From assembly GCA_000092065.1 (NCBI GenBank), contig CP000595.1: a stretch of DNA of 64,000 nt. One strand, given 5' to 3'. The notes under the pieces are model-generated. The model did not search any database and was not told where the DNA came from. It saw only the letters and a list, made by a program, of their open reading frames with translations. Both the position numbers and the translations under genes were made by a program. This document shows positions 4,601-62,282 of the stretch, one piece after another. Source of the stretch: Ostreococcus lucimarinus (Eukaryota). Every line of letters begins with the position of its first letter. The first letter of the stretch is position 1.

Positions 4601-5922
4601 TCTTCATCAGTTTCTTCAACTTGCACGGTTCCCATTTCGCTAGTCTTTGTCGTAGACTTGCTCAATAAGAAGGCTTTCTCAGCTTTCTCTGCCGCTCGAA
4701 GTCTAGCTTCCAATACTTCGCGTTCTTGTCGCAACTTTTTCTCTTGCATGAGAAGCTCTTTGAGAGCGGCGCTCGCTTCATCTTTTCCGCTCGTCGCGCG
4801 CTCTTCAACTTCAGTAAACTCAACGGGAGCGGGTGGCGTCTCCACAACTTCGGAGACGACGGGCTCGCATGCTGGCTTCTGCGGATCTCGTGCCTTCGCT
4901 CTCGCCTCTGCATCTGCTCTTATCTTTGCCATCTTGGCATCCACCTGCGCTCTCACTCTGGCTCGCGTGTCTGCTTTCAACTTCTCCAACGCCGCGGCTT
5001 TCTCCTCTGGTGTTTTGGCGACAAATTTCGGCGCAGTTTTCTTTGCTTTTGCGTCTTCTTTTGCCTTGGCTTCCGCGAGACGCCGCTCCTCTTCGGCGGC
5101 CTCAGCCTTGGCGGCTCTTTTAGCTTCCATCGCCGCGCGAGCTTCGCTTTCAGCCTCGGCGGCGGCGCGCGCCTCGAGCTCTCGTTGCTCAATCGCCTTT
5201 CGAGCCGCAGCCTTCTCTCGCTTCTCCCTCAACTGTCTGTTCTCCTCCTCGAGCGCTCGAAACGCCATCAAAGACTGCCGCTCCGCCTCCAGTCGCCGCA
5301 ATTCCCGCTCCATCTCAGCCTCCTCGTCGCCCTCCGCCGCGCTCGCGCTCGGCGCCATGACCACCTCCATCTTCTTCGGCACCACCCCCTGCACCCCCCC
5401 GAACGCCTCTCGCGCCCGTATCTCGCTCTTCAGCGCCGTTATCTCCCCCCGCAGCGCGCGCACGTCCGCCGCTCTCGGCGCCCCCCCGTCCTCGCTCGGC
5501 GCCAGCATCGCTCGCAGCGTCGTCTCCAGCCCCTCCAACCGCGTTCGCAGTTCCTCCGTCGCGCTCCCTCGCGCGTCGTCCGTCACCGCGCGCGTCATCG
5601 CCCGCTCCCGTCGCCCGTCGTCGCGTCGTCGCGTCCCCGTCGTCGCGCCTTTTCGCATCCATCGCGTTTCCGTCGCGTTCGCGCGCGTTCGCCCCCTCGC
5701 GCGCGCCGTCGCGACGGCGTCCGCGCGCGTCGCGATCGCCGCGCCGAGCGCCATCGCGTCGAGCGTCGCGCGTCGCGCCTTCGCGCGTCGTGCGTCGCGC
5801 GCGTCGGCGTCGCGCGCGTCTCGTCTCGCCCGGGTGTGTGGTGTGGATAACGCGGCGTCGCGCGATCGCGCGGCGTCACTATACATGGGCGTTCGTACGG
5901 CGAATCGGGCGTATAGTAACAT
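1681..5922 (-). CDS. Starch synthase III-like: N-terminal coiled coil with Ala/Gln/Glu repeats, two CBM53 starch-binding modules, GT5 catalytic domain
   Basis: The C-terminal half has the GT5 glycogen/starch synthase signature KVGGLGDVVTSLG...VVLPKYD plus a GT1-type C-domain. Two CBM53 modules show the SWNRW / GSNDWTG signatures. The N-terminal roughly 650 aa is heptad-rich (EAE/KAK). The start is uncertain: the 5922 ATG lies inside a duplicated 61-bp repeat, and in-frame alternatives are 5886 (MYSDAARS) and 5754 (MALGAAIATRAD), per the start finding at 5880-6011. Confidence 0.8.
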   Translation of the reverse strand: MLLYARFAVRTPMYSDAARSRDAALSTPHTRARRDARDADARDARRAKARRATLDAMALGAAIATRADAVATARARGRTRANATETRWMRKGATTGTRRRDDGRRERAMTRAVTDDARGSATEELRTRLEGLETTLRAMLAPSEDGGAPRAADVRALRGEITALKSEIRAREAFGGVQGVVPKKMEVVMAPSASAAEGDEEAEMERELRRLEAERQSLMAFRALEEENRQLREKREKAAARKAIEQRELEARAAAEAESEARAAMEAKRAAKAEAAEEERRLAEAKAKEDAKAKKTAPKFVAKTPEEKAAALEKLKADTRARVRAQVDAKMAKIRADAEARAKARDPQKPACEPVVSEVVETPPAPVEFTEVEERATSGKDEASAALKELLMQEKKLRQEREVLEARLRAAEKAEKAFLLSKSTTKTSEMGTVQVEETDEDIIDVAVNTEAAAQAATAQAEAEAQAAAAQAEAEAQAAAAQAEAEAQAAAAQAEAEAQAAAAQAEAEAQAAAAQAEAEAQAATAQAEAEAQAAAAQAEAQAEAAAAQAKAEAAAAQAEAQAEAAAAQAEAEAAAAAEMEAKAKAVAEAEAKVKAAALAEAKLQALAAEELAKSQKNTVSTIELDEELRMEQELSAELQVAYDEAKELAAAIPMAAKDWEIATNEVSAKFSGISRHLDGSTPSDANLWSLEPAVPVVGMPVTVRYCPTNRVLHGQNTIVMHYGSNDWTGAEQVRMEKSTGADDTFIATVDVPATAAVMDFVFSDGGAIYDNADRADFHAPVRNASQKLEIARMSSVLQRFQEITTARHAKEKADKIKKDKRDKAKAEAKAKAQAVTLKQQEHVLFTEPGQLEAGKIMKLFYNPNNTSLKGSERVFIVGSWNRWSHEKTFKLPMTEVLVKGEKRMEVELNIPTDAYMMDFVFSNGNHEGAHYDNRNNMDYHIPVIGGKDEKGVAVVEKPLHVVSVSVEMAPIAKVGGLGDVVTSLGLAVQAEGHKVEVVLPKYDVLKYDLIEDLKEEEGFQWGGCYNHVFSGTVEGVKTYFIDPDNGMFKVGMIYGTDYLEIPLTDAERFGYFSRAALEWMLQSGRQPDIIHCHDWQTAPVAKVYWEDYHNYGLGNPRVVFTIHNLDFGQSLIREAMDYSQIGTTVSRSYAQEISGHDSISHQLQKFHGVVNGIDPDIWDPANDKCLPVSYEIDTVAEGKAACRAALCSRSNISNKSDVPLIGVVTRLTHQKGIHLIKHAIFKALERGCQVVLLGSAPDPNVQREFEDMANALKQNHFNDAALHLYFDEPLSHLIYAGSDMILVPSMFEPCGLSQLIAMRYGTVPVVRRTGGLADTVFDYDHDHAKAEWEGMTPNGFQFDGTEAHDIDYALNRAIDLFYNDIEKFHALQANCMSCDFSWNRPALDYIELYHAARK
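4195..4575. repeat. Coding tandem repeat, period 33 bp (about 9-10 copies), encoding AQAEAEAQAAA units in the SSIII N-terminal region
   Basis: Near-perfect repeats of gcttgagcggcggcagcttgagcttcggcttcggc are visible on the + strand. The minus-frame translation is AQAEAEAQAAAAQAEAEAQAAAA... Confidence 0.85.
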
Positions 5923-6011
5923 AGCGCCGCGTCGCGCGTCGTGTCGTCAGTATACATGGGCGTTCGTACGGCGAATCGGGCGTATAGTAACATAGCGCCG
6001 CGTCGCGCGTC
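5880..6011. repeat. Two identical copies of a 61-bp direct repeat separated by 10 bp, in the divergent SSIII/SET promoter
   Basis: tatacatgggcgttcgtacggcgaatcgggcgtatagtaacatagcgccgcgtcgcgcgtc occurs at 5880-5940 and again at 5951-6011. Each copy carries an ATG on both strands (catgg / ccatg). Confidence 0.9.
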
Positions 6012-7452
6012 ACATCGCGCGATGGCGCGCGCGTCGCGCGCGGAGCTCGCGCGGCGCGCGGTCGCGATCGCCGTCGCGGTCGCGGGCGTCGCGCTCGCGG
6101 CGACGCGCGCGAGCGACGACGCGCGCGCGACGGCGACGGCGACGGCGATCGCGACGCCGACGGCGCTCGACGCGCGATTTCTGCGATGGATGGACGCGCG
6201 CGCGCTCGCGGCGACGGACGACGCGCGAGCGCGCGGGATGGTCGTCGCGCGCGTCGAGGATTGGGAAGACGAACGCGCGGTGGGCGCGAGGCGAACGCGC
6301 GGGGCGTTTGGCGCGCGGGGAGGGAAAGGGGAGGTGGAGACGAGGATCGCGCGGGACGCGGCGCTCGAGCGCGGGGCGACGACGGCGGGCGCGGGGAAGG
6401 ATGAGTGGGCGCTGGCGATCGAATTGATGCGAGAGCGAGCGAAGGGAGGGGTGAGCGCGTACGCGCCGTTCGTGGAGTCGCTGTACGAACACACGCCGGC
6501 GAGGGCGGTGGAGACGTCGAGAGCGGCGCGCGCGCGGTTGGAGGGACACGCGGCGGCGGAGACGATGAGAGAGTACGAACGAGACGCGGAGGATGGATGG
6601 CGAGCGGCGCGAAGGACGTTTGAGACGTTTCCATCGATTTTTTCCGTTCATGAATTCACGCGCGCGGCGTTCGAGGAGGCGTTGGCGATCGTTCGCGCGA
6701 ACTCTTTCGAGGCGAGGAGCGAAGACGGGACGCGCGCGCGCGCGCTCGTGCCGATGGCGCATTTGCTTTTGCACGACACCGGGAGCGAGGTTCCGTGCGT
6801 GAAGATCGTAGACGGTGTGTTCGTCATAAACGTTGACGAGCACGAAGAGGGAGACGAGTTGTCGTGCAGTCACGGTGATTATTCCGACGCCGAGACGTTT
6901 GCACGATTCGGCGTGAGCGCGTTTTATTCAGCCGAGAAGAACGCGAGAAATAAGATAAAGTTTGCGTTTCCGAGCGAAATTTATTCCATGAAAAGCTTAG
7001 ATCGATGTGGATCCGTCGAAAATATCGCATTCACGGACGCGGGTGCGACGGAAGAGTTTATGTGCGCCTTGAGACTCGCCTCGGCGAATGAAACCGAATG
7101 GGCCGCAATCTCAAAGTCTAAAGCCAGCGTTCGAGCGCTTCGTAAGAAACCGCTGAGTGAGGAGAGCGAGATAGCGGTTTACGAAGCATTATTTGCCACG
7201 CTCACCGAGTTACTGAACTCCTACCCATCGAGCGATAACGAAGACGAGCGATTATTACAAAGTCGGACGCTGCAGTCGGCGCCCGACGAGGAGCGCGCGG
7301 TGACGATTCGTCTTCGAGAGAAACGTCTCGCGCTGAGTAGTTTGAATGCTGTCCAATACGCCGGTCGTCAACAACTCGGCGGTTTGTTGTTCGACAAGCA
7401 TTTTGCCGACGTGTTACCGTCTCCTGTCAACGTGCGGCAGACAAACGGATGA
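5956..7452 (+). CDS. SET-domain protein, Rubisco LSMT / SETD3-like lysine methyltransferase family
   Basis: A SET-like core is present: WALAIELMRER..SAYAPFVESL and ...ALVPMAHLLLHDTGSEV (NH/LH motif), followed by an Rubisco-LSMT-like C-terminal region. The track ORF begins at GTG (5941). In-frame ATGs are at 5956 (inside the repeat) and 6022 (MARASRAELARRAVAIAVAVAGVALAA, signal/TM-like). The start is unresolved. Confidence 0.5.
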   Translation: MGVRTANRAYSNIAPRRASHRAMARASRAELARRAVAIAVAVAGVALAATRASDDARATATATAIATPTALDARFLRWMDARALAATDDARARGMVVARVEDWEDERAVGARRTRGAFGARGGKGEVETRIARDAALERGATTAGAGKDEWALAIELMRERAKGGVSAYAPFVESLYEHTPARAVETSRAARARLEGHAAAETMREYERDAEDGWRAARRTFETFPSIFSVHEFTRAAFEEALAIVRANSFEARSEDGTRARALVPMAHLLLHDTGSEVPCVKIVDGVFVINVDEHEEGDELSCSHGDYSDAETFARFGVSAFYSAEKNARNKIKFAFPSEIYSMKSLDRCGSVENIAFTDAGATEEFMCALRLASANETEWAAISKSKASVRALRKKPLSEESEIAVYEALFATLTELLNSYPSSDNEDERLLQSRTLQSAPDEERAVTIRLREKRLALSSLNAVQYAGRQQLGGLLFDKHFADVLPSPVNVRQTNG

Positions 7453-7515
7453 CGCGTGATCGAGTTGTGTTTGTAGCATAAAGATTGTATTGAAAGAATA
7501 TTTTTACTGTACAGC

Positions 7516-9375: not shown

Positions 9376-11196
9376 CTATCGCCGCGCTCGCTCGACGTGG
9401 GAGCGAGTGTGTGGGGTGTGGTACATGCGCGCCCAAGCGGCGAGGGCCTCGCGTCGGAACGGCGGTCGGTCCACCGCCGTGTCGCCGCCGAGCAAGAACG
9501 TGGCCAAACAACGCGATCCTTCGTCATCGTGACGGCCGCCCCACACTGCATCAATGCCGGTGAGTGCGAAAAAGGCTTCTCCTGGAGGCGGGGCGCCGTT
9601 TGGGGGCCAGTCTTCTCCCGACCAATACGAAGAATCGCGACCGGCGTCTGGAAAAAATTCAAAGCCGCAATGTGCCCCACAGCGCGGGCACAAGATCGGT
9701 AGCCATGCGTATCCTTCGAACCAAGAAAACTCAGGATGTGGCTCATCGGTATCCAGGACGACATCGGTGGTTCGATCGAGGAGCTCGTACGGACTCGTCG
9801 ACCAAAGCTCGCGCAAGCTTTCATTTTCGACAGTGCTCAAATCGACGGCGTTGCGCGCAAAGACCGCGTATCTATCGTACCAACCTCCGGGATTGAAAAA
9901 GATTTTACTCCTGACCGCAGTCGGAACAGTGTCTCGCAACTCAACAGAATCGGTGCGGAATCCGTCGATGTTTGAAAATTGCCGCATCATTCGAGTCGTC
10001 GTCAATACGAAGCCGCATCGATGCGTCACCGGAACGTGATTTGGCGGCATGACGGCTTCGAGCTGCAACCTGCTTAAAATCAAAGACAGACGAGAGTACG
10101 CGTCATCAATCGAGAGGACGAGCCAGCGAAACTGAGTGTCCAAAGCGATCGAAGGTATGGCATGAAGACACCAAAATGAAAATTCCGAGGGATGTCTGGC
10201 GCCGACGGGAAGCGACTCCTCGACGACTTGACGCAATGCCTCTTCCTTCCACGCGACTGCGTCCGTGAACTCGCGTTTGCTTTCGCTCAGGTAATCTAAA
10301 ATTTTTCCCATCAATTTTCTGCTATCGTGCACTCGATTATCGCGCTTGTGCACCCCCAGAGTATAAACGTTGATGCCGCTCGGCGCGAAGACGTCGTCGA
10401 GCGCGACGGGTGGGAACAACGACATGTCGTGCATGCTGTTGAAAGCGTTCTCTCGCGCCTTTGTCGTGTCGAAATCATCGGGAAACTCGCACCAAACGAT
10501 GTTTAACGCGCGGAACTCCACGAAGCAGGGCGTCCGATGAATCCATTGACACAGCGTCCCGACGCATCCAAACGTCGCCCCTCTCGCCGGCTCGTGCCCC
10601 TCTTCGGTCACACCGGTCGCATTCGACGCATCGAGCGCGAACACCACCAATCCCGTCGAGCGTCGCCGGACGGCACCGTCATCCCCATCATCGAGCGAGC
10701 CGTCTCGAAACGCGTCCTCGGGCGTCGTCGTCTCGCGCGTCCCCTCCAACCCCCAACCTTGCTCGACGCCATCGCGCGCGTACGCCACCAACTCTCGCGT
10801 TCGTCTCGCCGCGCTTCGCCGTCGCCACAACCACGTCGCGCTCTCCGTCGGCGCCTCGATCCTTTCTCCCGGCACTAATCCCGCGAGCGCCGACGTCGCC
10901 TCGACGAACGCGCACGGCGGCGCCGCGTCCATCTTCGACCCACCGCCTCGGCGTCCGCGGTCGTACCTCCACGCGCGCGCGCGCGCGCTTTCGACCGCTC
11001 TCCCGTACGTCTCGAACGCCCGCTTCGCGTCGATCCATCGTCGCGCGGCGTCGCCGTTCGTCTCGAACGCGTCCACCGCGTCGTCGTTCGCGGCGACGCC
11101 TCGACCGAGCGCGGCGACGTCGGCGCGATCGCGCGCGCCGTCGCCGCGTCCCGTGCGCACGGTGACGCGCGGGTACGCGTCGTCGAAGAGGTCCAT
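9376..11196 (-). CDS. Protein with a C-terminal cereblon-like CULT domain
   Basis: The C-terminus EFSWFEGYAWLPILCPRCGAHCGFEF matches the cereblon CULT signature (SWFPGYAW...C.IC.SH.GW.F). The first CxxC pair is degenerate. The middle region has no confident family assignment. Confidence 0.45.
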   Translation of the reverse strand: MDLFDDAYPRVTVRTGRGDGARDRADVAALGRGVAANDDAVDAFETNGDAARRWIDAKRAFETYGRAVESARARAWRYDRGRRGGGSKMDAAPPCAFVEATSALAGLVPGERIEAPTESATWLWRRRSAARRTRELVAYARDGVEQGWGLEGTRETTTPEDAFRDGSLDDGDDGAVRRRSTGLVVFALDASNATGVTEEGHEPARGATFGCVGTLCQWIHRTPCFVEFRALNIVWCEFPDDFDTTKARENAFNSMHDMSLFPPVALDDVFAPSGINVYTLGVHKRDNRVHDSRKLMGKILDYLSESKREFTDAVAWKEEALRQVVEESLPVGARHPSEFSFWCLHAIPSIALDTQFRWLVLSIDDAYSRLSLILSRLQLEAVMPPNHVPVTHRCGFVLTTTRMMRQFSNIDGFRTDSVELRDTVPTAVRSKIFFNPGGWYDRYAVFARNAVDLSTVENESLRELWSTSPYELLDRTTDVVLDTDEPHPEFSWFEGYAWLPILCPRCGAHCGFEFFPDAGRDSSYWSGEDWPPNGAPPPGEAFFALTGIDAVWGGRHDDEGSRCLATFLLGGDTAVDRPPFRREALAAWARMYHTPHTRSHVERARR

Positions 11197-11299
11197 GCGC
11201 GGCGCCGCGCGACGACGACGACGACGACGGCGACGCGCGGCGACGTGCCGGTAACACTATTCGTTTTCATCACTCCGCGACGCACGACGACGGGTGTTG

Positions 11300-11345
11300 C
11301 GCGCGCGCGATGGGCGCGCGCGCGCGATGGGCGCGCGCGATGGCG
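11300..11345. repeat. Three tandem copies of gcgcgcgatgg overlapping the GT25 start region, within the divergent promoter shared with the CULT-domain gene
   Basis: cgcgcgatgggcgcgcgcgcgcgatgggcgcgcgcgatggcgg gives three in-frame ATGs. Confidence 0.6.
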
Positions 11346-12683: not shown

Positions 12684-12723
12684 TAATAAATCTTTGTTGT
12701 ATTAAAGACACCTAGCTATAGCT

Positions 12724-17879: not shown

Positions 17880-20800
17880 CTATTTTGGGGATTCCCGCGA
17901 GTTCGTGGAGTGCGCGGTGAGATGGCGCTCGTCCAAGGCGATTAAACGTTCGCCGCGTCGGTGTGTTCGAGCTTTCCAGCGCTCACGTAAATCTTGCAAC
18001 TGTGAGCTCAAAGCGCCGTGTTGCTGGCGAATAGTAATCGTAGAGTCAGCCTTGATCGTTTCAAGTAAATCGTCGTCGGCGAAAGGAAGACGTTGACCAG
18101 TCATGCTTCGAAGTTGGATGCGTTCGCTTTCCTTTGCCATTTTCTCTTGATGAATGATCTCTTCGTCTCTCTTGGCGTCGAATTCGTCGACAATCGCCTC
18201 TTCAAATTCCAAGTCGCGAATAGCGCGCTTGATGAGGCCTTCTTCGCCCTCTTCGCGGAACTGGCGAACCAACGTTCGGGCAAAATCATACCATGCCCAT
18301 GCGTGCAGGATGAACAACAAGGCCGTGATGAGATCGACAAAAGTCGAGCCTTGTCCACCTTGTTCGCCTGATTGTTTGAAAATCAGTCCGCCGGTGAATG
18401 TTGCCATAGTAGCAAGTAAGCCATGTGTCTCGATCTTTGCGTACTTTTCGCCGGCATACGGTTTTGCGACGATGTGGAATACAAAGAAAAGTTGCAACAT
18501 ACAATTCACCGTGTATCCACCAATGACTGCACTTCGTCTAGATACGATCACTATGAAGATCAGGATGAATTTTCTCGCGAATATGACCCATTCCCACCAC
18601 CACGCGGACTTGACATTGATTCCCTTGAAGAGCAAACCGAGACGATATTGCACCATTGCTGAATCGTGCTCGCCGACAATGTCTTCTCCGCGAGCGAGCT
18701 GCAGCAAACCGTATGGAATACCGACGATATACAGTATAGCCCAAACGATGACCATAAACAAGTAAAGTGAGTAGGCGGTGCCCCGGCATTGGACCGAATA
18801 GTCGGATACAAAGTGTCGATCGCTGTCGCCAGACGTACCAGTGCACTGCGTGAACTCAGCCAAATATTGAACAAGGGTGGGATAGAGAAGCCACAGAGTC
18901 GCGACGAGCCATGATATTACTATGTCGTAAGCTCTGATGTTTCGCACTTCTTCAAGACCGACATCGTGCTTGTTCACTTTATTCGTGTTACCACTATCGA
19001 TGGCGTTTGTTTCTTCATCTTCAGCAGAATCATTTGCCTTTGTCTTCTTCGTGGCTTCCACTCTAGCTTGGGCCGTTGCCTCTCTCAACTCTTCGACGTA
19101 CTTGATAACCGTGAAGATGATGAACAAGAATATCATCAAGCCTAGTGGGAGCAACTCGTGAAACAGTAGATTTCCGTAAAACTTCCAGCCAATGGCGCAC
19201 TTTGCTGACGCCGACCGTATGTCAGGTAACGAAAGCTTCTCGGCGATAAGTAAGAATGCTTTCATCGAATCCGGCCATGCGAGGTCTAAATTTTTCGCCA
19301 ACGCTGTCATTTGTAAATAGGTGACAAACGATTTTATCATGCCGACGACTTGTGAACTTCGGCGTTGATTGACAACCCGAATGAGCCACACCAGCAACAA
19401 TATCCAGAGAAAGTTGACGACGACGATCGGAAAGTTGAGCACTCGATATGCTCCTGCCGAACAATCGTAACATTTTGGTGGATATGCTTCTCGAATGGCG
19501 TGGTACGCATAACCATTCGCACAAGCTGCGCACATAGCACCAGTGTACCCTGCATCAAGACATGTGCTGTTTACGCCGCCTAGGCACGCGTCAGGGTACG
19601 GACACGCGCGAAATTTCAGCGTTTGTCGGTCAAATCTACTGAAACCAGGAAGCGCTTCGACATTTTCGAGCTCATCACCGTAACATTTTGCACCTTTCGG
19701 GCATGCCATACATTTGTAATCATCGAGTGGGAGTTGTCGATAATAGCTCTCGAATGGGACACTCGTTTGAGAGATGCAGTGGCAGGAACTCTTGCTCACG
19801 TGACCAAGGGCGCCTAAAAGTTGCACTCCTGACTGTGCTTGATATGTTTGCCTCAATCTGCCGTCAACTCGCGAAGTATCCATGGAGATTGGGCACGACG
19901 TGCATGCTCCGTCACCGTGCGCCACTTTGTAGAAGCCATTCTTGCACGGCACACACATGCCATACGGGTGAAGAGCATCGAGCCATCGAGATGACCCAGA
20001 TGTAGCTGTCTTATATAGAGTTATATTCGTTTCGACATAAATGGTATCGATATCTTCAGTATATCCCGTGCCTCCACTAATGTCGGCGGTGAAGCCAGGA
20101 ATGCACTCGCACACGCCAGAGCGAAGCACGCTGTTCGGTTTGACTGTTGAGCAATTCATGACCGTCGTTGGAGTTGAAGGTACGATACTCACATTCAACG
20201 TTGAAGCCGAAAAATTCAGCTCATAGGCATTCGCGCGCTCACCGATGATTGTGATTGAATCGAATTTCGCCAAGCCGTTCACCATCGCCGCCTCTGTCCC
20301 TGAAATGCTCGCCACAGCGGGCGATACACTGACCGTAAGCGTCGTATTGATATCGACGCACACGTTTCCTACAGAATCGATCGCCGCGATGACTGGTGCA
20401 GGCGAAAGTGCGAAGTCATTTTCGTTTATGAAGGGAGGTGCCGTGACGACGGCCAACGCTGTCGGCGCGCCAGGGACTACGGTGAACTCCAACATGTCAG
20501 TCTCCAGCACAGGATAGAGCGCACCAGGACATCGACTTGAGCCACATGATGAAGCGAATCGCAAGCGATAGGTCCCAGCTAATGCATTTTGAATATGCAG
20601 ACCGACATTATAGTGTGTGTCGGGCGCAATACCACTATACCCAGCCTCCCTGCAATATGATGGTGCGGGGTTGGTGTACACCACTCTGTACGTGTAAGCA
20701 CCAGTCGTGGGATTACTGGAGACCACAGTCCTCGGGCTAGAGTCAAGTGAATCTTTGCACCATCCCACTCCACCATTTACTGCGAGAAGAGATCCATCCC

Positions 20801-23800
20801 ATTCGGCTTGCAAGGTTGGTAGCACACTTGCCCGTGGTTGATCCTCCGCTGGCACGAAAGAAAATAGCTCAACCGTGATGTTACGCGCTTCGGTGTCCCA
20901 CATCGAGCCCACATGATAACCGCCAGGATCAGTCATTTGCACGACAAAGTCACGAAGATCCAGGGTTTGCGCTGCGATATATTGTGCAGGATCCCGACAC
21001 AAACCTCGGTCGACACGTGTGAACGAGTTACCGGTGCACGTGTCAAGCGCCGCTGGGTACCCAGCGCTGTAAGTCAGTTGTGTGGAGACCGAATCGAGAC
21101 CCGCTGTAGAAAACGTCAATGAGTACGTTCCGGTGCACGGTCGATAGAATACGATATCATCAAACACCGCTGTGCCCGCAACGATAGTCTGAGGTGTGTA
21201 TGATACATTCGTCTCAAAGTTGCAAGCGCTCACGACCACGCGCTCCGCCTTTACAGAAACTTCGTAATTTAGGTTGAGCGCATTCAAGCCTGCATCGACC
21301 ACACGAATCTGAATCATACTCAATTTTACTTTTTTTGCCGTGGAATACGCAGTCTGCAACGCGATTGCTGCACCGCTGGCAGGTGACGTGAAAGTCTGAA
21401 CAATTAATCCACCATTAATATTTTGCATGAAAAAGAAAAAATAAGTAAGCCTTACCGGTGAGATGAAAAGCGCACTTGCAGTGCCAATCGTAATCGTAAA
21501 TGTACGAGTCGCGGGCGCAACGCTGAGCCCTAACGCGGTACAATTGTCGCAGTTGAAAGAAATCACATAATCCCCGATCTGTAATTAATTGTGTGTGAGG
21601 ATGAAAGTTCTAATGAAATCTGTCATCAATGGGAGCGTACCTCTGGGGCATTGATCACTGTGTCACGAAGTAGTGTACTGTCGGTTCCCGCCGCTATGAC
21701 GCCATTTCTCCCGCTCGTCGCAAACGTATGCCTACATTTTGAATAAAATTAATTAATTCCGGTTATGAATTAATTAGAATCGAAACGTACCTTTGACCCA
21801 CGATACTGGCGATAATACTGTACTCGTGAGTGTTAAGCGACCCGAAACGATTACCTGCGTCATCTGCGATCGCAATTTCGAAAGGGCCGAGGGTTGTTGA
21901 TGCCGTCGCCGGGTATGATCCTTGTGGTGAATTTGCCACGACCAGTTTAGCTGGATCTCCTAACGCCACTGTTACCGCATAAGTCGCAACGGCCTTGCCG
22001 TTGAGATAAAATACGATATCGTGCTGCTGCGCAGTCGGCGCGAGCAGCACGAGGTTCTTAAACTCAACGACGCCGGGTGTGCCGCCCTGTGTATTTAAAT
22101 AAGTTAATTAATTGTTCTCCGTGAAATAAATAATTCATCGCGTTCGAGCATAGTTGACTCACCTGAGTTGCACACGTCGTAGTGCTACCACACGATATCG
22201 CAAAAGTTTCCCCTCCTATCAAGGGATTAATTCCCTGTGGATAAGCCGCCAATTCGGCGGTTTGGCAGACAACAAATATTTGTGCCCCGGTCGGCGAAGC
22301 CGAAATAAAATTCCCTCCGCCATCGTAAAGTCGCCCAACTAGAGGACTAGAAGCGTTCGCAATCGATGTTTCTAGCTTAGATTTGAATGTTCCACTACCT
22401 TGTGTTTCGTCGAGGATCAATTGTGCCGCATTTCCCAAAGTCACGGAAAAGTAGTACTGTGCACCCAGCAGACCCGGCGAGTGGATGTCGACGGCGTACG
22501 TACCGATGTACGGCTTGGCGATGTGTAGTCCATCAAAATAGCTTCCACCAGACTCAGTGTTGGCTTCAAAAGTCGCCACTGATGTACATGATACTCCATG
22601 CAGTGTCGACGATGTACTGGCAAGCCCAGCACATTCGCATGCGTTGCCTTCACCAGTTCTTCTGCACAAGGTGACATTTTGCGGCGATAAGTGCACACGT
22701 CTGCTAGGACATGTCTCGCAAGCTTTCGTTTCAAGATCATCGACGGGATTGAAAGCTCCGTCGAGAATAGTCACCACGACTGGGTACATTGCAACGTCCG
22801 ACGCGGCGCGATATTGATGACAAGTGCAGTTGACATTAGTTTGGCACGCTCCGTCGACTGTGGCGCAGTACGGCAGTAAGCCGAGGTGATTGGATCGCCC
22901 TGCCGTGATCTCTAAATCCACGCTTGCAGACCTCAAACTCGAATCGGACGACACGAAAGTCAAATTGTACGTTCCTTTCTGCGGCTTGACGAGATGCAAA
23001 CCTGAGAACGTCGCAGTCCCAGCGCTCGAAGTGGTTTCCACAAGAGAGCCGGTCCTCGGGTACAGTGAAGTATCTGTGTATACAGTAAGTACCGACGTTC
23101 TTGCGATTGTTGTCGCATTTGCACCGAGTATGAACGGATGAATTTCGACGTTTGTGTCATTCATCATCGCCGTCAACGTAACTCCGTTCGGCAAAGTCCC
23201 CGTCGGCGACTCATTTCCCGCCCCATCCACCGGTACGACGACGAAGTCATCCAGAGGCACAGAGTGCCCGGCTGAGTATGCTGTTGCCTCGGATAGTTGG
23301 ATGCTTTCAGTGAATGATGGTGAAAATTCTAAGACTTTGGGGCTGGTGACCTTGAATCCGCTCACGGCTCCAATCAAAACGCTCACCGTGAGAACTGTAC
23401 TTTGTAGCTTTCCCACGCGCAACTCGCCACTCACTTCAGCGCCAGTCTCAATGACATTAAGGGTGTGCGTACCGACTTTCGGTGAATTTGCAATCAAACC
23501 CGTGAAAGAAACTTGACCGTTGCCATTCGTGAACATCGCAGTCGTTCCAGAAAGTTTCAAAGTTTCGCAAGTCACTTGAATGGTACGATTTGGCGCTACT
23601 GCATCCGTGGTTGAGTGACGATCCGCGGTTCCCATTGAATTGCCGAGCATATCTTGAACGTATACCGTGAACGAACCCAATCCTACAGATTGATCAGCTG
23701 TTACCGATGATAATATCGATTGACTCGAAGCTAGTTCATATCCAGCATCTCCAGCTAGCACATTCACCACTTGGAGAACGGGTGTTAAATCGCCAGACGA

Positions 23801-26800
23801 GAATGTCAATCCGAACTCCCCGACGACAGGTCCGACTACTTTGAGATCAGAAAATCGCCATACACCGCTGTCGTCTCGTTTTACTTGCAAAGTACCATCC
23901 AAAGTGATACCAGCCGATGCATGTACGGTCACAGTACGCGGCGTAATTTCCGCCGCACCGACAAAGTTATTCCCCCCGTCGTATGCGCCAATGATAATTT
24001 CACCTACGGATTGCTTGGGTGCCTCGGCGTAAACTGTTCTCTTACTATACGTCCCATTTATACGAAGGTAAGACGGTTCGCCGATCTCCATTTGCATAAT
24101 TGAATGCGCGCGATATCGAACTCCATTCAACGTCGTCGTAAACTGAACAATGTACTTTGAAGCCTCGCCAAAGTCTCCTCGTGTGGCATCGCTATACGTG
24201 ATATCGTCCGTGGATCCTACAGCTCGTGAACCAGAAGGTGGCATAGCGACAAGTCTGAGATCTGAAAATGATACTCGACCATCATTAGTCGTCTTGTTCA
24301 GCGTTCCAGTGAGCTGGGCTCCGATACTTCTCTCTCTGTAGTCTTCGTTGCTGTTGAGTGTACCCGTCACGAGTGACGCTTGTACGGTGACGTCATCAAG
24401 AGATAGCGTCTGAAGCATACTTCCACCGATGTCAACGATGTCGACTGTCAAATGTCCGATCGATACGTTTCGGGCCGCGTCGAGCACGACGACATCTGTT
24501 GGAAATAACGTAGCACTTGATATCATAGAATTCTCCGTCGCCGCGCCGGGTGTCACCTTCAAACCACCGCTCGAACCTGGTGTTACGGATAAATAGGCGT
24601 GTGCAAGTACACCAAGGTCATCACTACATGCACCATCATCATTGGTACAATCGGTTGCGGTAAAAGTGATCACGTATTCCCCAGCGGTTGGTATCGAGGA
24701 TAGCTGTGGAGTGAATGTTGCGATGCCGTCCGAAGTCTGCACTGATGACGTTGCCTCGGTGATAGCGACCTCTGACGGCCCAGAAATACTCGCCGAAATT
24801 GTGTAACCTTTCGTACCTCCTTGACCACGGTCATAGTTGATTTCAGTTCCATCGATATCCACAAGTCCAACCTTGAACGTTCCAAGTGAGAAATCTGTCG
24901 CGGCAACTCGAGCTTGATGCGAATCCGGTCCACTCAAGAGCTTAACTCCAACTGGTGGTCCATGAAGCTTCAAAATCCCTCCACTAACGTAATCAATACC
25001 GTTCAGTGCAACTGCGACCTGCGCATCTTGCGGTTGTCCGTTCGTAAGCCATGGAAGCGGACTCCCAACTGGATTGGCGCACCTTCCATTGACTACATTG
25101 CACACAGGACACTTGATTTCTGACGAACTAACGAACACCGCACTGGTCACACTCGTCGTGTTATCGTTGAACTTACATTTTAAATCGGGCGAATTCAGAA
25201 ACGGACCTCCGAGTATGCGAAGCAGTACTGGCGCGAGATCGGCATCCTCGCCTGTGAGAAGAACCTTGGCGTCATCTGAACCAATCTTTGTACTAATTAT
25301 GACGGCTGGATCGTGATAACGTAGATATATCTGACCAGAGTTCCACAGCGAGTTGGTCCAAATGCTTGTTGGATCGCTCGAATCGGTTGGTAATCCATCG
25401 AACGATATTTGGACTTCGCTATAACCTATAGTGGAGGAGTTTGAATTTGACGCCGACGGTGCCATGCATGAGAGCTCTGTCGCCGAAACATAAGTTGCTG
25501 GCGACCAAGATGTCTTCGAAAACCCATTATTAGCGTCATAAGTGTGTCCAAACCTACATGAAATCGAATGACTCATTCCACTGGCAAGGGTAGGCGAATA
25601 AAAGCCAGATCCATGAATTTTTATCGGCGTTCCAGACGTGAGCGCGCTGATGTGAGTCGGCTCGATCCCCGAAACGATCACCGTGGAGTACTTTGTGTAC
25701 GTCGTACTCGCCGCAGAACTCACCGCGAACACGCTGCGCTCGCCCGGTACGGCGCTGATGCCACCGATGGTGTGGCTTTCTTCAAATGTCCCCACACGCT
25801 TGAAACAACCGCTTATACAAGCACTAGACGTGTCCGTACCCCCTATTTCGATCTTGACGATCCGACTCTTACCGCTTTCACGCGATCCCACGGCCCAGTA
25901 CATGAAATCTTTTTCTCCTGCCGTCGCTCCGGTTTGAACGGTAGCGCTCAGAGCATCACGCTCTCCGAGCGCTGCGTCAAGAGCAATCACGGCGAGTGGA
26001 CTATCGCCTTCAGCAAAATTCAAGTCAAACATGAAGATGCATGCCGCGCGATTTTTACACCCCGGACAGTCGCCGTCTCGACCTGAAGTGCCCACGTATC
26101 CATAGCCGTTGTGCTTTGTGATCGCAGTAAACGTCGAAAAGCGTCCTTGCTTTGAATCGAGCTGCCCTTCGCACGCCTCGAGCACCTTGACGTTTGTTGA
26201 GTCCAAATACATTTCAACCCCATCGCCGTCACGAGTCCCTGAGTTTGTATTCACCTTGAACAAAGTAGGATAAAAGGTTTTGCCATCGGAGTCATCCAAG
26301 AGGGCAGATCCAGCGAAGATGACATAGTTGACACCTGTTTGAGTATGCGCCACACTCGTCTCCAACCTCATGGCGTCCGGGGCAAGCGAACATGTGGGGC
26401 ATTTAGTGCTCAGTAAACCCGGAGCTAAGAAGTTTATTCCTTTATCGTTCAAACTGCCGTCGACGTGACCAATGACGCTTCGCGACAGACCGTCTTCGTG
26501 CGTGGCCTTGTACACTATCATGCCGTTGGCTGGGTCTGTGCCCATGGCATCCAAAATGTACTGCTCTTTTGAGAAAGTCGCACTCGCCTGACCATTTGTC
26601 AATGAACTGAGAACGCAGTTCGCCCACTGCGATGAATCTGATGAGCATGTAGTACCGACATACTTGAAAAGCGAAAATCTAAACTGATTTGCCGTGGTCT
26701 GATGCCACATGTTCACTGGCACGACGACGCCCGTCAGCGCTGTCGACAAATCGGCAGCCATTTTAGCGTACACTCCGTACCAACCGCGCGACTTCTGAGG

Positions 26801-27379
26801 ATCCACATGTCCATATGCTCTCGGATGCTTCGCTGCGCACCCGCTCGAGATCCCAATACCGCAAAAATTTGGCAAAGGTGTTATCGACAATGGCACCGCG
26901 CCCGTTGTCTCTCGTCTCGGTCCGTTCGTTTGTCCCCAACCTCTCGCCGTCACTGCGTTTGAGGTAAAAGTCTCCGGATACCTCGGATCGACTTCGATCA
27001 CTCGCGTTCCATTAGCATCTTGCGCGTAGACGTAAATTACGTTCTTTCGCGTGTCTACCATGACGTCTTCGACGTACTTTTCGTCGTACGCCGTCCCGGC
27101 GGTGTCGTACTCGTACCCCGCCGTCCCATCCAAGCGCGACTCTTTCACCACCGATGGCGTGGGAACATCGCACGCAAGTCCTGCCCATCCTGCCTCGCAC
27201 GCGCACACGCCGTCTAAGCCGCATCGCCCCTGTCCAGCGCTCGCCGAGCACCCGCGCTCGCAACGATTGAACGTCAAGCCTTGACATGAGTGCGCCAACG
27301 ACGCGATGACGACGACGAGCGCGACGGTGACGAGCGCTCTGAACCCTCGGCGCGAGCTTGTACGACCGTTACCACCCAT
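17880..27379 (-). CDS. Giant (about 3080 aa) receptor-like membrane protein, 5 exons: complement join(22163..27379, 21791..22086, 21641..21731, 21456..21578, 17880..21395)
   Basis: A signal peptide is followed by an EGF-like module and a long extracellular region of beta-sandwich (IPT/TIG-like) repeats. Next come GCC2/GCC3- or ephrin-receptor-like Cys modules (CVPCKNGFYKV..CTSCP), then 7-8 TM helices and a cytoplasmic coiled coil. ATG at 27379 (MGGNGRTSSRRGFRALVTVALVVVIASLAHSCQG). The three track ORFs 22064-27634, 21763-22050 and 17880-21566 are joined in frame. The four introns are 76, 59, 62 and 60 nt with GT..AG ends; the track ORFs read through them (for example VRLTYFFFFMQNINGGLIVQ is intron 4 translated). 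Confidence 0.6.
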
Positions 27380-29013: not shown

Positions 29014-31620
29014 TTAATCGAGCGCCAATGGAATATCCCCTTCTTGCAACAATCTTCCAATCTGTGCCATCCGATCCCTGTTTGCCTTCTTCTCCGTGGC
29101 CATATCTAAGAGTAAGCTTCGCATCTCGTGCTCGACGTCGTCGACTCGCTCGTACGCTTCGCGCACGATGGCATCGCTTTCCTCTCTGATGGCGATTGCC
29201 CGCGTCTCATACATACTGGCCTTATCCCTCGCGATCGCCAGTTGTTCACTCAGCTCCTCCAATTGGTGCTGCAATTCTTTACTCTTCGCTTTTTCGATAC
29301 TATCACTCGTCTCCAGAGTCTGCGTCAACCGCTTGATCTGGGATTCCATGTGAACAATTATGCGGTCGCGTTCAGCCACGGCATTATTTGCTTTGCTGAT
29401 CGCGTGCTCATACGATGCGTGATCGACCTCGGAGTCCGCGAGAGCATTTTCTAGCTCTGTGATGTTCATTTCCATCGACTCTACCTGTTGGACCAAAGAT
29501 CGACACTCTTCCGACATCGCATTCATCCTTGCTTCCGCCTCCACCATTCTCGCGTCGTGCGTCCTCAACGATTCCGCTTTTTGTTCGCGTAATCGAACAG
29601 CTTCATCCTTCAGAGACTTAATGAGCTGATTCTGGTGCTGAAGCATATCGTTCTTGATCTTTGTGCTCTCATCTGCTGATTCGAGCTTCAATTGAAGAGC
29701 CTCGACGTCCCGGATGAGTCGCTCGGCGAGCTCTTCTCGCTCGCGAGCCTTCTCTTCTCGCGCCGCGGCGGACCTCTCAGCCTTCAACGCCGCGACTTTG
29801 GCGCTCTTGATCGTCGCATGCGTGCTTTCCCTATCTATCACCGCCCCACGGGCGCGCTCGAGCTCTTCTTCCATGAGAACAACCATCTCACGCGTCTTGG
29901 CGTAACCTTCGAGTTGATCGCGTTGACTTTCCACCACTTGCGCCAATTCCTCGTTGAGTGTCTCAGCCTCGGCGCGTTCGGCACACGCGACTCGAAGTAA
30001 TTCTCGCATCTCACTGAGACCCGCTTCTTGGGCAGCAATTTTCTCGTTACTCGCGATCGCGGCTTCTTCGTGCGCATGCTGTTCGCGTTCCATCGACGAA
30101 ATACGCTCCTTCAAGCGCGCGTTCTCCTCGATGGCTTGCGCGTACACCGTCGATTCCTTACGAGCTTCGTTCACGCGATCGTTTAGCAACGCGTTTTGCT
30201 CGTCCATGTACATGGCTTTCAGATTTGCGAGATTCTCCGCAGATTCCGTCCTGACTTCTTGCAATATCGTCTCCAACTCACTGACTCGCAGTTGTGCTGC
30301 TTCCTCGTTTCTCGACGCGCGCTCGATGGCTTGCGAGGCTTTGGTCAACTCTCGGCGGAGAGTTTCGACTTCTTCACGAAGGCGGCGCTCGCTCGCGTCG
30401 TCGATCGTCACGTTAGACATCGCACTCTTCTGCGTCTCTACGTCTTTCATCAAAGGTGCCTCCGTTTGACTCGACTCTTCCCGAACGCGCCTGACGACTT
30501 GCTGATCAAAATCGATGGCTCGCTTCGCCGCATCCCCGTTGACCTGCACGCCGCGCGATTTGACGCTCTCATCGGCGGCTTGGAAGGCTGTTTGTCGTTT
30601 TTCACCCGAACGGTCCCCGCGTTGAGGCGTTCTCGAAAACTGCTCTGCGTGGGGAGGCGTCATGCTGCTTCGTCCGGGAGCCGTCGTCGCAGACGCGTCG
30701 AGAGTCTTTGTCATCGCCTTTGTGCACGTTTCGACGCTTAAAACCACACCATCTAGGTGCGTGAGCCAAGGAACGAGCGATGCCATCGTAATTCTATATG
30801 ACGGCACATCGCACATCCCGTTCGTTTCTTTCCCGATCACCGATCCTTCTTCCATTTTCAACCGAAGCGATTCCAAGCGCGTCAACTCGCTGAGCGCTCG
30901 CGCGGCTTGGAAACTTTCCAACGCGTTCCCTCGCGCGTCGAGCGCGCGAATGCCCCACTCCGCCCCGTCACTCCTCGCAAACCCACTCAAAGACTTGATT
31001 TTATTATTGGAAATGTTCACTCGCTCCAGCGTCGTCGACGCTCGTTCGAATCCCCTCGTCGACTCGAGCGCGTTGCTCGCCAGATTCAGCGTTCGCAGGC
31101 GAGTCAACTTTTCCAACCCTCTCGCCTCCGCGATGGCGTTCGACGACAGATCGAGTTCTTCCAACCGCGTCAACACCGCGAACGCTTCGCAATCCATGCT
31201 CGTTATCTCGCACGCGTGCGCTCGCAGCGCGCGTAAATTTACGAATCTCTCCAGCGATTCGATCCGCTCCGGCGTCCCGAGCGCCGTCCCGTACGTCGCC
31301 AGCTCTCGCACGTCCTCATCCGCCATCGTCGTCGACGGTCTCAGATCGATCGTCCCTCGACCTCCCGCACCGCGCGCGCCCGCGTCTTCTACCTCGCGCC
31401 CCGTCGTCCCTTCCCCCTCCCGCGCGCGCGTCCGCGTCCCGTCCCGCCCCTCGCGCGCGCGTCCCGATAACGAGGCGTCGTCGTCGCCATCGCTCGCGTC
31501 GTCGCCATCGCTCCCTCGGTCCTTCGCCCGCGTCCCGACCGCGACCGCGACCGCGCGCGCGGAGTCCTCTCGATCGAGCGTCGCGCCCTCGCTCGCGCGC
31601 GCCTCCCGCGCGCGCTCCAT
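29014..31620 (-). CDS. Leucine-rich-repeat plus long coiled-coil protein (LRRCC1/centriolin-like, centrosomal type)
   Basis: The N-terminus has SDS22-like LRRs (LEELDLSSNAIAEARGLEKLTRLRTLNLASNALES...). The following roughly 550 aa is heptad-rich coiled coil. Confidence 0.6.
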   Translation of the reverse strand: MERAREARASEGATLDREDSARAVAVAVGTRAKDRGSDGDDASDGDDDASLSGRAREGRDGTRTRAREGEGTTGREVEDAGARGAGGRGTIDLRPSTTMADEDVRELATYGTALGTPERIESLERFVNLRALRAHACEITSMDCEAFAVLTRLEELDLSSNAIAEARGLEKLTRLRTLNLASNALESTRGFERASTTLERVNISNNKIKSLSGFARSDGAEWGIRALDARGNALESFQAARALSELTRLESLRLKMEEGSVIGKETNGMCDVPSYRITMASLVPWLTHLDGVVLSVETCTKAMTKTLDASATTAPGRSSMTPPHAEQFSRTPQRGDRSGEKRQTAFQAADESVKSRGVQVNGDAAKRAIDFDQQVVRRVREESSQTEAPLMKDVETQKSAMSNVTIDDASERRLREEVETLRRELTKASQAIERASRNEEAAQLRVSELETILQEVRTESAENLANLKAMYMDEQNALLNDRVNEARKESTVYAQAIEENARLKERISSMEREQHAHEEAAIASNEKIAAQEAGLSEMRELLRVACAERAEAETLNEELAQVVESQRDQLEGYAKTREMVVLMEEELERARGAVIDRESTHATIKSAKVAALKAERSAAAREEKAREREELAERLIRDVEALQLKLESADESTKIKNDMLQHQNQLIKSLKDEAVRLREQKAESLRTHDARMVEAEARMNAMSEECRSLVQQVESMEMNITELENALADSEVDHASYEHAISKANNAVAERDRIIVHMESQIKRLTQTLETSDSIEKAKSKELQHQLEELSEQLAIARDKASMYETRAIAIREESDAIVREAYERVDDVEHEMRSLLLDMATEKKANRDRMAQIGRLLQEGDIPLALD

Positions 31621-31819
31621 GCGCGCCGGCGCCCGAGCCGTCGCGAAGTCGCGGTCGACGGACAGACATCGCGCGCCGGAGACGCCGGGCGCGTGCCTTG
31701 ATTTTCCGGGTGTGCGGACCCCTCGCGTCGACGGGTCGCGACCCGCGACGGGGGTTCACGGCGCGCGATCGATCGAGATCCGCGAAAAAGGCGACGCTCG
31801 GCGACGCTTGGCATGGCGC

Positions 31820-31875
31820 GTCCGAACGTCCGAACGTCCGAACGTCCGAACGTCCGAACGTCCGAACGTCCGAAC
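31820..31875. repeat. (GTCCGAAC)7 perfect 8-mer array (plus one degenerate copy) in the LRR/TPR divergent intergenic region
   Basis: cgtccgaacgtccgaacgtccgaacgtccgaacgtccgaacgtccgaacgtccgaacgtcgacg. Confidence 0.9.
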
Positions 31876-31925
31876 GTCCGAACGTCGACGCGCGCGCGTC
31901 CGAACGTCGACGCGCGCGCGGCGCG

Positions 31926-32043
31926 ATGCGGGCGCGACGGGCGGCGACGGCGGCGACGACGCGATCGAGGGCGAGACGAGACGAGGACGGACGACGCCTC
32001 GAACGGGCGTCGCGCGTCGCGACGACGACGACGACGACGACGA

Positions 32044-32085
<42 letters not shown>

Positions 32086-36314: not shown

Positions 36315-36339
36315 TTTATAACAAACAACAACGACATTA

Positions 36340-47665: not shown

Positions 47666-47971
47666 GCGGCGCGTTCGAACGCGCGCGTCGCGCGGTGCCG
47701 ACGACCGGCGTCGCGACAGCCGGGACGCGCGTTCGAACGCGCGACGCGCGAGAGATATTTCGCGTCGGACTGTTTGCGCGTACGTGCGGTCGGTCGCCAC
47801 GAATCCGTCTCACGTCGCGCAAAATATACACACGGACGCAAACGCGATTCCGCCGGCGGCGGCGCCGCGCGCCTCGCGACGACGCGCGACGGACGCGCGC
47901 GCGCGCGAACGCGGCGCGGATCGCTCGATACGCGAATTCCGCGACGTCGATAACGCGGCGAGGCGCGAAAC

Positions 47972-49313
47972 ATGGCGAAGACGCGACGGAGAAAGCGACG
48001 AACGCACGTGGACGCGGACGCGGGCGGCGGGAGCAAAGGCAAAGACGCGGACGCGCCGCGGACGTTCGTGTTCACGCGAGGACGCATGGCGGACGCGGTG
48101 AAGGATCTGAGCGAGGATTTGCGAAAGGTGCGGGAAATCGGGGCGAGAGGAGAGGACGCGATCGGGGGAGATGGGGACGCGAGCGCGGCGAGCGAGGAGG
48201 AACGCGCGGACTGACGAGCGACGACGCGCGACGCAGGTGATGGAACCGCACACGGCGCGGAATTTGAAGGAATCGAAGAGCAATAAGTTGAAAGATTTCG
48301 TGCAAGTATCCGGACCGCTGGGGATTTCGCACTTTTTGATGCTCAGTTCGTCGGACGCGTCCAAGTATTTCAAGATTTGTCGAACGCCGAGAGGGCCGAC
48401 GTTGACGTTTAAGATTCATTCGTTTTCCCTGTCGAACGAGGTCGCAGCGACGCAAAAGAACCCGAGGAATCCAGCGAAGGCGTTTTTGTCGCCTCCGCTC
48501 GTGATTTTAAATAACTTTGGCGATGAAGCGCATCAAAAGTTGGCGACGATTACGTTTCAGAATATGTTTCCGCCTATCAACGTGCGCAAGGTGAAGCTTT
48601 CAACGTGTCAGCGCGCCGTGCTCGTGGATTACGACGCCAAGACGAAAAGATTTCAGTTTCGTCACTACAGCATCAACGCCGCGCCCGTGGGGGCGAATAA
48701 AAAATTGAAGAAGCTCTTACAGTCGAGAAACGCGCCCGATTTGGGGGACACGCAAGACGTGAGCGAATTTTTCGACAAGAGAGTCGGCGACGCGAGCGAT
48801 AGCGAAGGCTCCGACGACGAAAGTCGACGAGTGCACTTGACGCAGGACTTCAATCGCGTCGCTCACGCCGACAGCACGTCCAAGATTATCCTCAACGAAA
48901 TCGGTCCTCGCATGGAACTCGAGCTCGTCAAGGTCGAGGAAGGCATGTGCGACGGCCGCGTGTTATACCACGCCTACGTCAAGAAAACCGCGGAAGAGGT
49001 CAAAACTCTCGAGCAGAAAAAGGTCGAGCGCGAAAAGTTACGAAAACGCCGACGAGTAGAGCAAGAAGCGAACGTCAAGCGCAAGGCGCGCGAGAAGGAA
49101 ATCAAAGCGGACGCCGAGCGCGCCCGTCAAGGCAAATCCAAAAAGAAATCCTCCGCCGTGGACGAGTTCGGGAACGTCCGCGACGTCGAGGGTGAGGCAG
49201 AAGACGACGCCAAGTGGGCCGCCGCGTTCGAACGCGAAGAAAAAGAATGGCGAGAGGGCGACGTGTACGACGAGCGTTCCGGAAAGACAAAGCGTAAACG
49301 CCACGGCGACTAG
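47972..49313 (+). CDS. PPAN: Ribosome biogenesis Brix-domain protein PPAN/Ssf1 (Peter Pan), 2 exons: join(47972..48127, 48237..49313), 410 aa
   Basis: Exon 1 is MAKTRRRKRRTHV...PRTFVFTRGRMADAVKDLSEDLRK. Exon 2 is VMEPHTARNLKESKSNKLKDFVQVSGPLGISHFLMLS..., matching PPAN (PKSFVFSRGK...DLRKLMLPHTALNLKEKKRNTLKDF.NVAGPLGVTHFL). There is a Brix core and a K/E-rich tail. Donor gtgcgg; acceptor gacgcag; intron 109 bp. Confidence 0.75.
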
Positions 49314-51524: not shown

Positions 51525-51728
51525 CGCTCGCGTTCGCGCGCGCGCGCGTCGTCGGCGTCGGCGTGTGCGACGCGCACGACGCGCGACGCGTTCGACACCG
51601 TCGGCGCGACGCCGCGCGTATGCGCAAACAGTGAGAGACCGCGCACCACCGCGCGCGCCGGCATTCCGCGGTCGCCCGATCGCGCGCGTCGCGCCGCGCC
51701 GACGGACGAGCGCTCGAGCGCCCGCGCG

Positions 51729-62232: not shown

Positions 62233-62233
62233 C

Positions 62234-62272
62234 GCGCGCGCGGTCGGCGCGCGGTCGGCGCGCGGTCGGCGC
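62234..62272. repeat. cgcggtcggcg x3 tandem 11-mer filling the 50-bp divergent interval between the DUF455 and Pol-beta-like gene start codons
   Basis: atcgcgcgcgcggtcggcgcgcggtcggcgcgcggtcggcgcgcgtcg. Confidence 0.8.
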
Positions 62273-62282
62273 GCGTCGTCCA

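Follow-up and report, generated by a model that had tools for sequence, protein, structure and literature searches.

A hypervariable array of an 8-bp unit between divergent LRR and TPR genes of the picoalga Ostreococcus lucimarinus

Introduction

What kind of object is a perfect array of one octamer that lies in the short spacer between two divergently transcribed genes, and does its sequence matter to either of them? The question is raised by a locus of Ostreococcus lucimarinus CCE9901. It is contained in a contiguous stretch of 64,000 nucleotides (hereafter, the window), which has a GC content of 0.577 and a CpG observed/expected ratio of 1.64 and in which four open reading frames (ORFs) are identical to the RefSeq proteins XP_001421600.1, XP_001421758.1, XP_001421748.1, and XP_001421598.1. 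The first-pass annotation, made from the sequence of the window, had considered the array either as a set of transcription-factor binding sites or as an expansion-prone regulatory microsatellite, and had left room for its translation as (ERPNVRTS)n.

Repeats of this placement are known from several systems. The human insulin-gene VNTR and the promoter tandem repeats of Saccharomyces are promoter VNTRs with a measured effect on expression, and promoter tandem repeats act as tuning knobs in yeast and in bacterial contingency loci. The TA repeats between hifA and hifB of Haemophilus influenzae constitute a phase-variable contingency locus within a divergent promoter. On the side of bound motifs, the ACGT-core cis-elements of plants are bound by bZIP factors. 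Here, we describe the structure of the octamer array, its variation in natural populations, and the distribution of the unit in the window and in metagenomes, and we weigh the explanations that these data allow.

Results

Structure and position of the array

The unit GTCCGAAC is repeated eight times, perfectly and head-to-tail, as expected for a minisatellite or VNTR (Table 1). Including partial units, the perfect period-8 run extends over 68 bp (31819-31886) and is the longest perfect tandem repeat of the window, the runners-up being (CGATCT)6.8 at 14981 and an 11-mer repeated 3.6 times at 62236. The first-pass annotation had located a perfect array at the right place (31820-31875), but its count of seven copies falls one unit short. 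What it had described as a degenerate eighth copy behind a spacer is in fact a perfect ninth unit, which follows the 14-bp spacer GTCGACGCGCGCGC. Unit and spacer together form a 22-bp direct duplication (31876-31897 and 31898-31919) that is found in all complete alleles and appears in the TRF output as a row with period 22, 2.1 copies, and 100% match (31875-31920).

Table 1. Features of the LRR/TPR locus and of the second array locus, followed by the array structures of complete alleles. Positions are those of the window unless a contig is named; units are coded as A = GTCCGAAC, B = GTCCGCGC, C = GTCCGCAC.
Feature or structure	Position or source	Strand	Remarks
LRR + coiled-coil gene, 868-aa ORF	29014-31620	-	Pfam LRR_4/LRR_8, then long coiled coil
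Divergent LRR/TPR spacer	31621-31925	none	GC 0.72; tandem repeats cover 45%
10-bp repeat GGCGACGCTC x2.3	31790-31812	none	directly left of array; 11 bp deleted there in L027 and L050
Main block, GTCCGAAC x8	31820-31883	none	64 bp; alleles differ here in copy number and unit spelling
Spacer GTCGACGCGCGCGC, 14 bp	31884-31897	none	(CG)n tail length-variable: 12, 14, or 16 bp by allele
Ninth, isolated, perfect GTCCGAAC unit	31898-31905	none	reads GTCCGCAC in allele L053
Second copy of the 14-bp spacer GTCGACGCGCGCGC	31906-31919	none	
TPR gene, 490 aa	31926-33398	+	Pfam TPR_12/TPR_10
(ACG)n coding microsatellite, poly-Thr tract of TPR N-terminus	32020-32084	+	in-frame length variation among alleles
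Second array, (GTCCGAAC)5	L045 (reverse-complemented) 7398-7437		also in L010, L011, L020, L028, L035
A8	window, L016, L051, L061		
A7	L052, L077		spacer lengths differ
A4	L029		
BAAAB	L046, L074		spacer spelling differs
A7-B-A-C	L050		
AAAAC	L053		isolated unit also C
ABBBB	L054, L071		
ABAAAB	L062, L075, L072		two spacer lengths
ABAAB	L070		
AAAB + GTCCGAAA	L066		

The octamer units occupy positions -106 to -21 from the TPR start codon, or to -7 when the second spacer is counted. The TPR ATG lies 43 bp past the end of the eight-unit block and 7 bp past the end of the composite repeat. At 21-106 bp upstream of this codon, the array would therefore fall in the core promoter or the 5' UTR of the TPR gene. 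On the other side, 200 bp separate the start of the array from the first ATG of the LRR ORF (31620), which agrees with the distance given before. The Pfam domains and the ORFs also bear out the earlier placement of the array between divergent LRR-coiled-coil and TPR genes.

In the remainder of the 64-kb window, both strands taken together, 3 further copies of the octamer are found, vs 1.8 expected from an order-3 Markov model. Since this count is close to expectation, the octamer is no common word here, and a chance origin of the array is excluded. It is not an artefact of assembly either, because the exact reference structure is found in three independent metagenome assemblies (L016, L051, and L061). 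Folded as single-stranded DNA or as RNA, the array was no more stable than its dinucleotide shuffles (z = 0.2 and 0.7), and a special hairpin was accordingly dismissed as an explanation, although the array allows imperfect ACGT/CG pairing and the duplicated spacer could form a (CG)n stem. The whole window gave no Rfam match at gathering thresholds. A scan of viral contigs with a 24-mer of three units returned 0 matches, and on this ground a link to prasinoviruses was rejected.

Variation in natural populations

Scanning JGI metagenome contigs with the same 24-mer recovered the LRR/TPR locus five times, and look-ups of four LRR protein variants added 28 further copies, which makes 33 independently assembled environmental copies in total. 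The five copies from the scan, aligned over 4.7-13.7 kb, were 98.4-99.3% identical to the window. Among 18 complete alleles, which are metagenome consensus contigs and not single cells and whose individual array lengths could be mis-assembled, we distinguished 13 array structures, counting spacer differences, with 4-10 units in the main block. Since several of the structures were obtained from more than one independent sample, assembly noise is an unlikely source of them.

The differences take the form of whole-unit steps (A8, A7, A4) combined with interspersed variant units (ABBBB, ABAAAB, BAAAB, A7-B-A-C). Whole 8-bp units are gained or lost among alleles, GTCCGCGC and GTCCGCAC variants arise and get amplified, and the (CG)n tract shifts in length. 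GTCCGCGC or GTCCGCAC takes the place of GTCCGAAC units in 9 of the 13 structures, and most structures thus contain units with CG or CA instead of the central AA. In the ABBBB alleles, a single GTCCGAAC is left in the main block. Counted per 60-column block of the 18-allele alignment, there are 11-12 haplotypes in the array, 3-7 in the rest of the spacer, and 1 in the adjacent coding sequence on each side. A copy number that differs within the species between conserved flanks (98.4-99.3% identity in the five alleles aligned at full length) is what characterizes a VNTR. Of the earlier readings, the expansion-prone microsatellite is thus the one that the alleles support, and the comparison of array length among strains that had been suggested along with it yields 4-10 units across the 18 complete population alleles. 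The shortest main block in this set has 4 units; either retention of the units or just a short time to coalescence may account for this minimum.

The heterogeneity has left its trace in the assemblies as well. Ten contigs out of 33 break off within the array (L027, L055-L060, L063, L064, and L068), and one scaffold (L076) carries an N gap across it, as is expected of assemblers where the population is heterogeneous.

A further polymorphism was observed about 65 bp to the left of the array. At 31746-31756, seven alleles (L046, L052, L062, L064, L066, L072, and L074) have TCGACTTTTTTT(T)AGGGTTTAGGGTTTAGT in place of CGACGGGGGTT, and the inserted sequence amounts to 2.5 copies of the telomere repeat TTTAGGG. 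The telomere repeat of Mamiellophyceae is AAACCCT (PMC5455958). By its sequence, the insertion resembles a plant telo-box or the footprint of a telomerase-type repair, and it segregates in wild O. lucimarinus. Three short contigs with only the LRR side (L065, L067, and L069) had been considered as transcript ends; this was rejected, as they end at the same polymorphic insertion site and carry no poly(A) tails.

Start codons and the non-coding nature of the array

The exact 490-aa TPR product had no identical entry in the protein collection, and its start was judged from the alleles. Nineteen alleles extend to ATG 31926, and each of them has an ORF that starts there and runs without a stop into the TPR domain or up to the end of the contig. 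The first 33 residues are identical throughout, save for a single R-to-G substitution in L053. L016 and L046 have lost the second in-frame ATG (32043) by deletion. Given the open frame, the near-invariant N-terminus, and the loss of the second ATG, position 31926 is most likely the TPR start codon. All length changes downstream of it are in-frame and fall in the (ACG)n poly-Thr tract, where L016 and L046 lack 15 bp, L050 has 42 bp more, and Thr/Met/Ala substitutions occur. On the LRR side, translation may really begin at the Met at 31326, some 490 bp from the array, since the orthologues are devoid of the low-complexity 98-aa N-terminal extension.

If the TPR protein started upstream at 31698, the array would encode (ERPNVRTS)n, and the reference indeed has a stop-free frame from this position through the array into the TPR gene. 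However, the codon at 31698 is TTG, and the genome is eukaryotic; no in-frame ATG follows until 31926. The array differs by 8 bp (A8 vs A7) and by 32 bp (A8 vs A4) between alleles, which would shift the frame, whereas none of these alleles has its ORF from 31926 disrupted. The indels of the spacer among alleles measure 1, 2, 3, 11, and 19 bp; since such lengths are not confined to multiples of 3, the spacer as a whole (31621-31925) is taken as non-coding. Neither the usable start codon nor the changes in multiples of 3 that mark a coding tandem repeat were found for the array. With length differences of 8-32 bp beside an ORF that remains open, we judge the array to be non-coding on the allele sequences, and the translation that the first-pass annotation had kept open is refuted; a start at 31698 is practically out of the question.

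Distribution of the octamer and the second locus

The gene order of LRR, divergent TPR, CSL zinc-ribbon, and L21e genes is kept in four related Ostreococcus-like taxa (L001-L004), with TPR proteins of 66-77% amino acid identity. The orthologous LRR/TPR spacers of these taxa contain no GTCCGAAC, not even the hexamer CCGAAC, and each has its own, unrelated simple repeats. The conservation of a motif in orthologous promoters, as expected of an array of transcription-factor sites, was accordingly not observed among the four taxa, nor was the constraint on the motif within the species, given the GTCCGCGC/GTCCGCAC units in 9 of 13 structures. For each of the eight rotations of the octamer, the count in the 64-kb window outside the array is near the order-3 Markov expectation (observed 1-9 vs expected 1.8-9.2). 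In the full-text literature, the octamer and its rotations were found only in primers, aptamers, and unrelated constructs among the matches listed, and a search of the literature on Ostreococcus microsatellites, promoter motifs, and tandem repeats found nothing on the octamer array.

Besides the LRR/TPR locus, the JGI scan recovered, six times, a second locus in which (GTCCGAAC)5 lies 97 bp upstream of the gene for a 130-aa bacterial-type (organellar) ribosomal protein L18. Its assignment to O. lucimarinus follows from the LL-diaminopimelate aminotransferase encoded next to it, which is identical to XP_001416567.1. The units are followed by ACTC and one more unit in most copies. All five spanning contigs have 5 units, and the sole difference is a 12-bp indel (ACTC and one unit) in L020. 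With 5-6 recoveries of each of the two loci and none of a third one from O. lucimarinus, arrays of at least three units are probably limited to these two in the genome. A gene with a Myb/SANT-like product was observed about 640 bp from the second array.

Alignment of the flanks of the TPR and L18 loci gave three comparisons within the shuffle range and a fourth with a score of 60 vs 21 for mononucleotide shuffles. A mobile element shared by the two loci was considered and rejected, as this sole match above the shuffles consists of CG-rich low complexity around both start codons.

Two further contigs of picoalga-like composition (L024 and L034) carry 3-4 units in non-orthologous spacers. In L024 (9461-9484), (GTCCGAAC)3 followed by GTCC repeats was observed about 140 bp upstream of a tRNA-Sec gene (9622-9706; anticodon TCA). 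About 33 of the 46 matches of the metagenome scan were set aside as bacterial-looking (GC 0.60-0.72, CpG observed/expected of about 1.0-1.5) or otherwise unrelated (GC 0.42-0.59). These contigs contain octamer arrays of the CCGAACGN type with unrelated flanks. The bacterial-looking ones (L005, L007, L019, L022, L025, L026, L030, L044, L047, L048, and others) show 8-bp arrays of CCGAACGN or CCGAACAN, for example CCCGAACGA and ATCCGAAC. Tandem arrays of the CCGAACGN/CCGAACAN octamer family seem to have originated repeatedly, in genomes that are unrelated to each other.

Spacer composition in the window

We classified the spacers from a rough ORF map of the window. Promoter-side spacers have a GC content of 0.61-0.88, and most of them are covered by tandem repeats over 23-100% of their length (for example 11197-11309, 31621-31925, 47666-48170, 51525-51728, and 62233-62282). 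Short convergent spacers are AT-rich, with GC 0.24-0.49, and have no repeats (for example 7453-7515, 12684-12723, and 36315-36339). The promoter and terminator sides of genes thus carry a sharp compositional signature, and the octamer array does not stand apart in kind, but exhibits in extreme form what the promoters of this genome have in general.

In land plants, tandem repeats are concentrated in the 5' UTR and the first 200 bp upstream of genes, whereas the two green algae of the same survey, Chlamydomonas and Volvox, show the opposite trend, with repeats mostly in introns and coding sequence (PMC3887541). Ostreococcus spacers lie outside this survey; the GC-rich promoter-side spacers of the window share with the land plants the position of repeats directly upstream of genes.

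Other observations were made in the same window. A region of lower GC (0.49-0.50 vs 0.58 overall) at 17880-27379 holds two giant minus-strand ORFs (1182 and 1771 aa), in which the GC content at third codon positions is about 0.51, vs mostly 0.6-0.8 in the neighbours. For these ORFs, Pfam gave only a weak ephrin-receptor-like match. The orthologous loci of two of the related taxa (L003 and L004) also have a neighbour of 1751-1840 aa. Inside a starch-synthase-like ORF of 1413 aa (1681-5922, minus strand; CBM53 and Glyco_transf_5), a 33-bp unit is repeated 11.4 times with 89% match (4207-4575). As 33 bp correspond to 11 codons and keep the frame, the repeat is probably translated, on the N-terminal side of the CBM53 domains. 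The starch-synthase-like gene is separated from the ORF at 5956-7452 by a divergent spacer, and a 71-bp direct repeat (5874-6011; 1.9 copies, 98% identity) extends across it.

Discussion

We have characterized an octamer array in the CpG-rich divergent spacer of an LRR and a TPR gene of O. lucimarinus. The explanation that we prefer, with a probability of about 0.72, is that of a young, hypervariable, non-coding minisatellite (VNTR) with an 8-bp unit and without a sequence-specific function. The hypervariability is known here from standing variation. Replication slippage, unequal exchange, or both would change the number of units, and the array would persist since length changes are tolerated at this spacer. 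If there is any effect on expression, it would act through spacing or the length of the 5' UTR and not through a bound motif. From the lack of constraint on the unit among the alleles and the related taxa, we infer that its sequence has no specific function.

On the one hand, the position of the array is one at which its length could matter. In a copy-number tuning knob, no specific partner would bind the units; the length itself would alter the promoter geometry or the 5' UTR and hence the expression of the TPR (or LRR) gene, and selection would maintain or exploit the variation. The placement at -106 to -21 relative to the TPR start codon, with the LRR ATG about 200 bp away, is suited to this, and together with the hypervariability it matches that of contingency loci, in which a hypermutable repeat lies where the number of units can alter expression. 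The very high allelic diversity (13 structures in 18 alleles) and the presence of at least four units in every complete allele also speak for it. However, neutral slippage predicts the same kind of diversity, and the sister taxa run the same gene pair without the octamer array. In addition, the neighbouring (CG)n, (ACG)n, and 10-mer repeats vary likewise, and the behaviour is not special to the array. Accordingly, we regard a tuning knob of this kind as unlikely, although it deserves to be kept in mind.

On the other hand, the array could consist of sites for a sequence-specific factor that co-regulates the promoters of the TPR and organellar L18 genes. The unit junctions give AACGTC, with an ACGT core, at 8-bp intervals. 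The scan returned exactly two O. lucimarinus array loci, recovered 5 and 6 times. Both arrays stand 20-100 bp upstream of an ATG, after which an Arg/Ala/Thr-rich N-terminus is encoded that looks transit-peptide-like by eye, and similar arrays exist in the Ostreococcus-like contigs L024 and L034. Nevertheless, the motif is missing from the four orthologous spacers, shows no enrichment in the other approximately 30 gene spacers of the window, and drifts in spelling within the species (ABBBB, BAAAB), and the binding-site array of the first-pass annotation finds no support in these results. Moreover, the octamer has opposite orientations relative to the downstream gene at the TPR and L18 loci, the flanks of these loci share no homology beyond CG-rich low complexity, and the literature matches listed are confined to primers and aptamers or the like. 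We therefore consider such co-regulation very improbable. Hardly more probable is a combination of both ideas by analogy, in which a dedicated factor would read the octamer at the TPR and L18 promoters and 4-10 units, diluted by GTCCGCGC, would set the expression levels of lineages. The array would then be a length-tunable cis-element and an analogue of contingency loci in eukaryotic phytoplankton.

With the insulin VNTR and the Saccharomyces promoter repeats, the array shares a short head-to-tail unit just upstream of a gene, copy-number steps of whole units, interspersed and amplified variants, and stable flanks. In contrast to them, its unit is only 8 bp long and CpG-rich, and it resides in a picoalgal genome of 13 Mb whose spacers measure a few hundred bp; a measured effect on expression is a feature of the named examples. 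Like the hifA/hifB repeats, it is a hypervariable repeat between divergent genes, where gain or loss of units would alter the promoter spacing. Unlike them, it is eukaryotic and has no -10/-35 spacing logic, and its flanking genes are not surface or defence genes; ON/OFF switching belongs to the hif-type loci. With the bZIP elements of plants, it has in common the ACGT core in the AACGTC of each octamer junction, but the motif is neither conserved across species nor enriched in the window, and the core is lost in the natural GTCCGCGC units. To our knowledge, the bases that flank the ACGT core in the array match no described box.

In summary, the array is of a well-known kind, and the locus itself is undescribed as far as the searchable literature shows. 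Its biology is ordinary, namely that of a slippage-prone promoter repeat. The practical value lies in its use as a strain-level marker of O. lucimarinus in metagenomes, for which it is very informative, because 13 structures in 18 alleles are contained within about 100 bp and can be read in one Illumina read. Diversity within species of Bathycoccaceae has been described as very poorly documented except for O. tauri (PMC11539686). The array also explains why metagenome assemblies break at this point of the chromosome, which is a warning for the binning and scaffolding of O. lucimarinus genomes. If it is true that the copy number affects expression, this locus would be the first case of promoter-repeat tuning in a picoalga.
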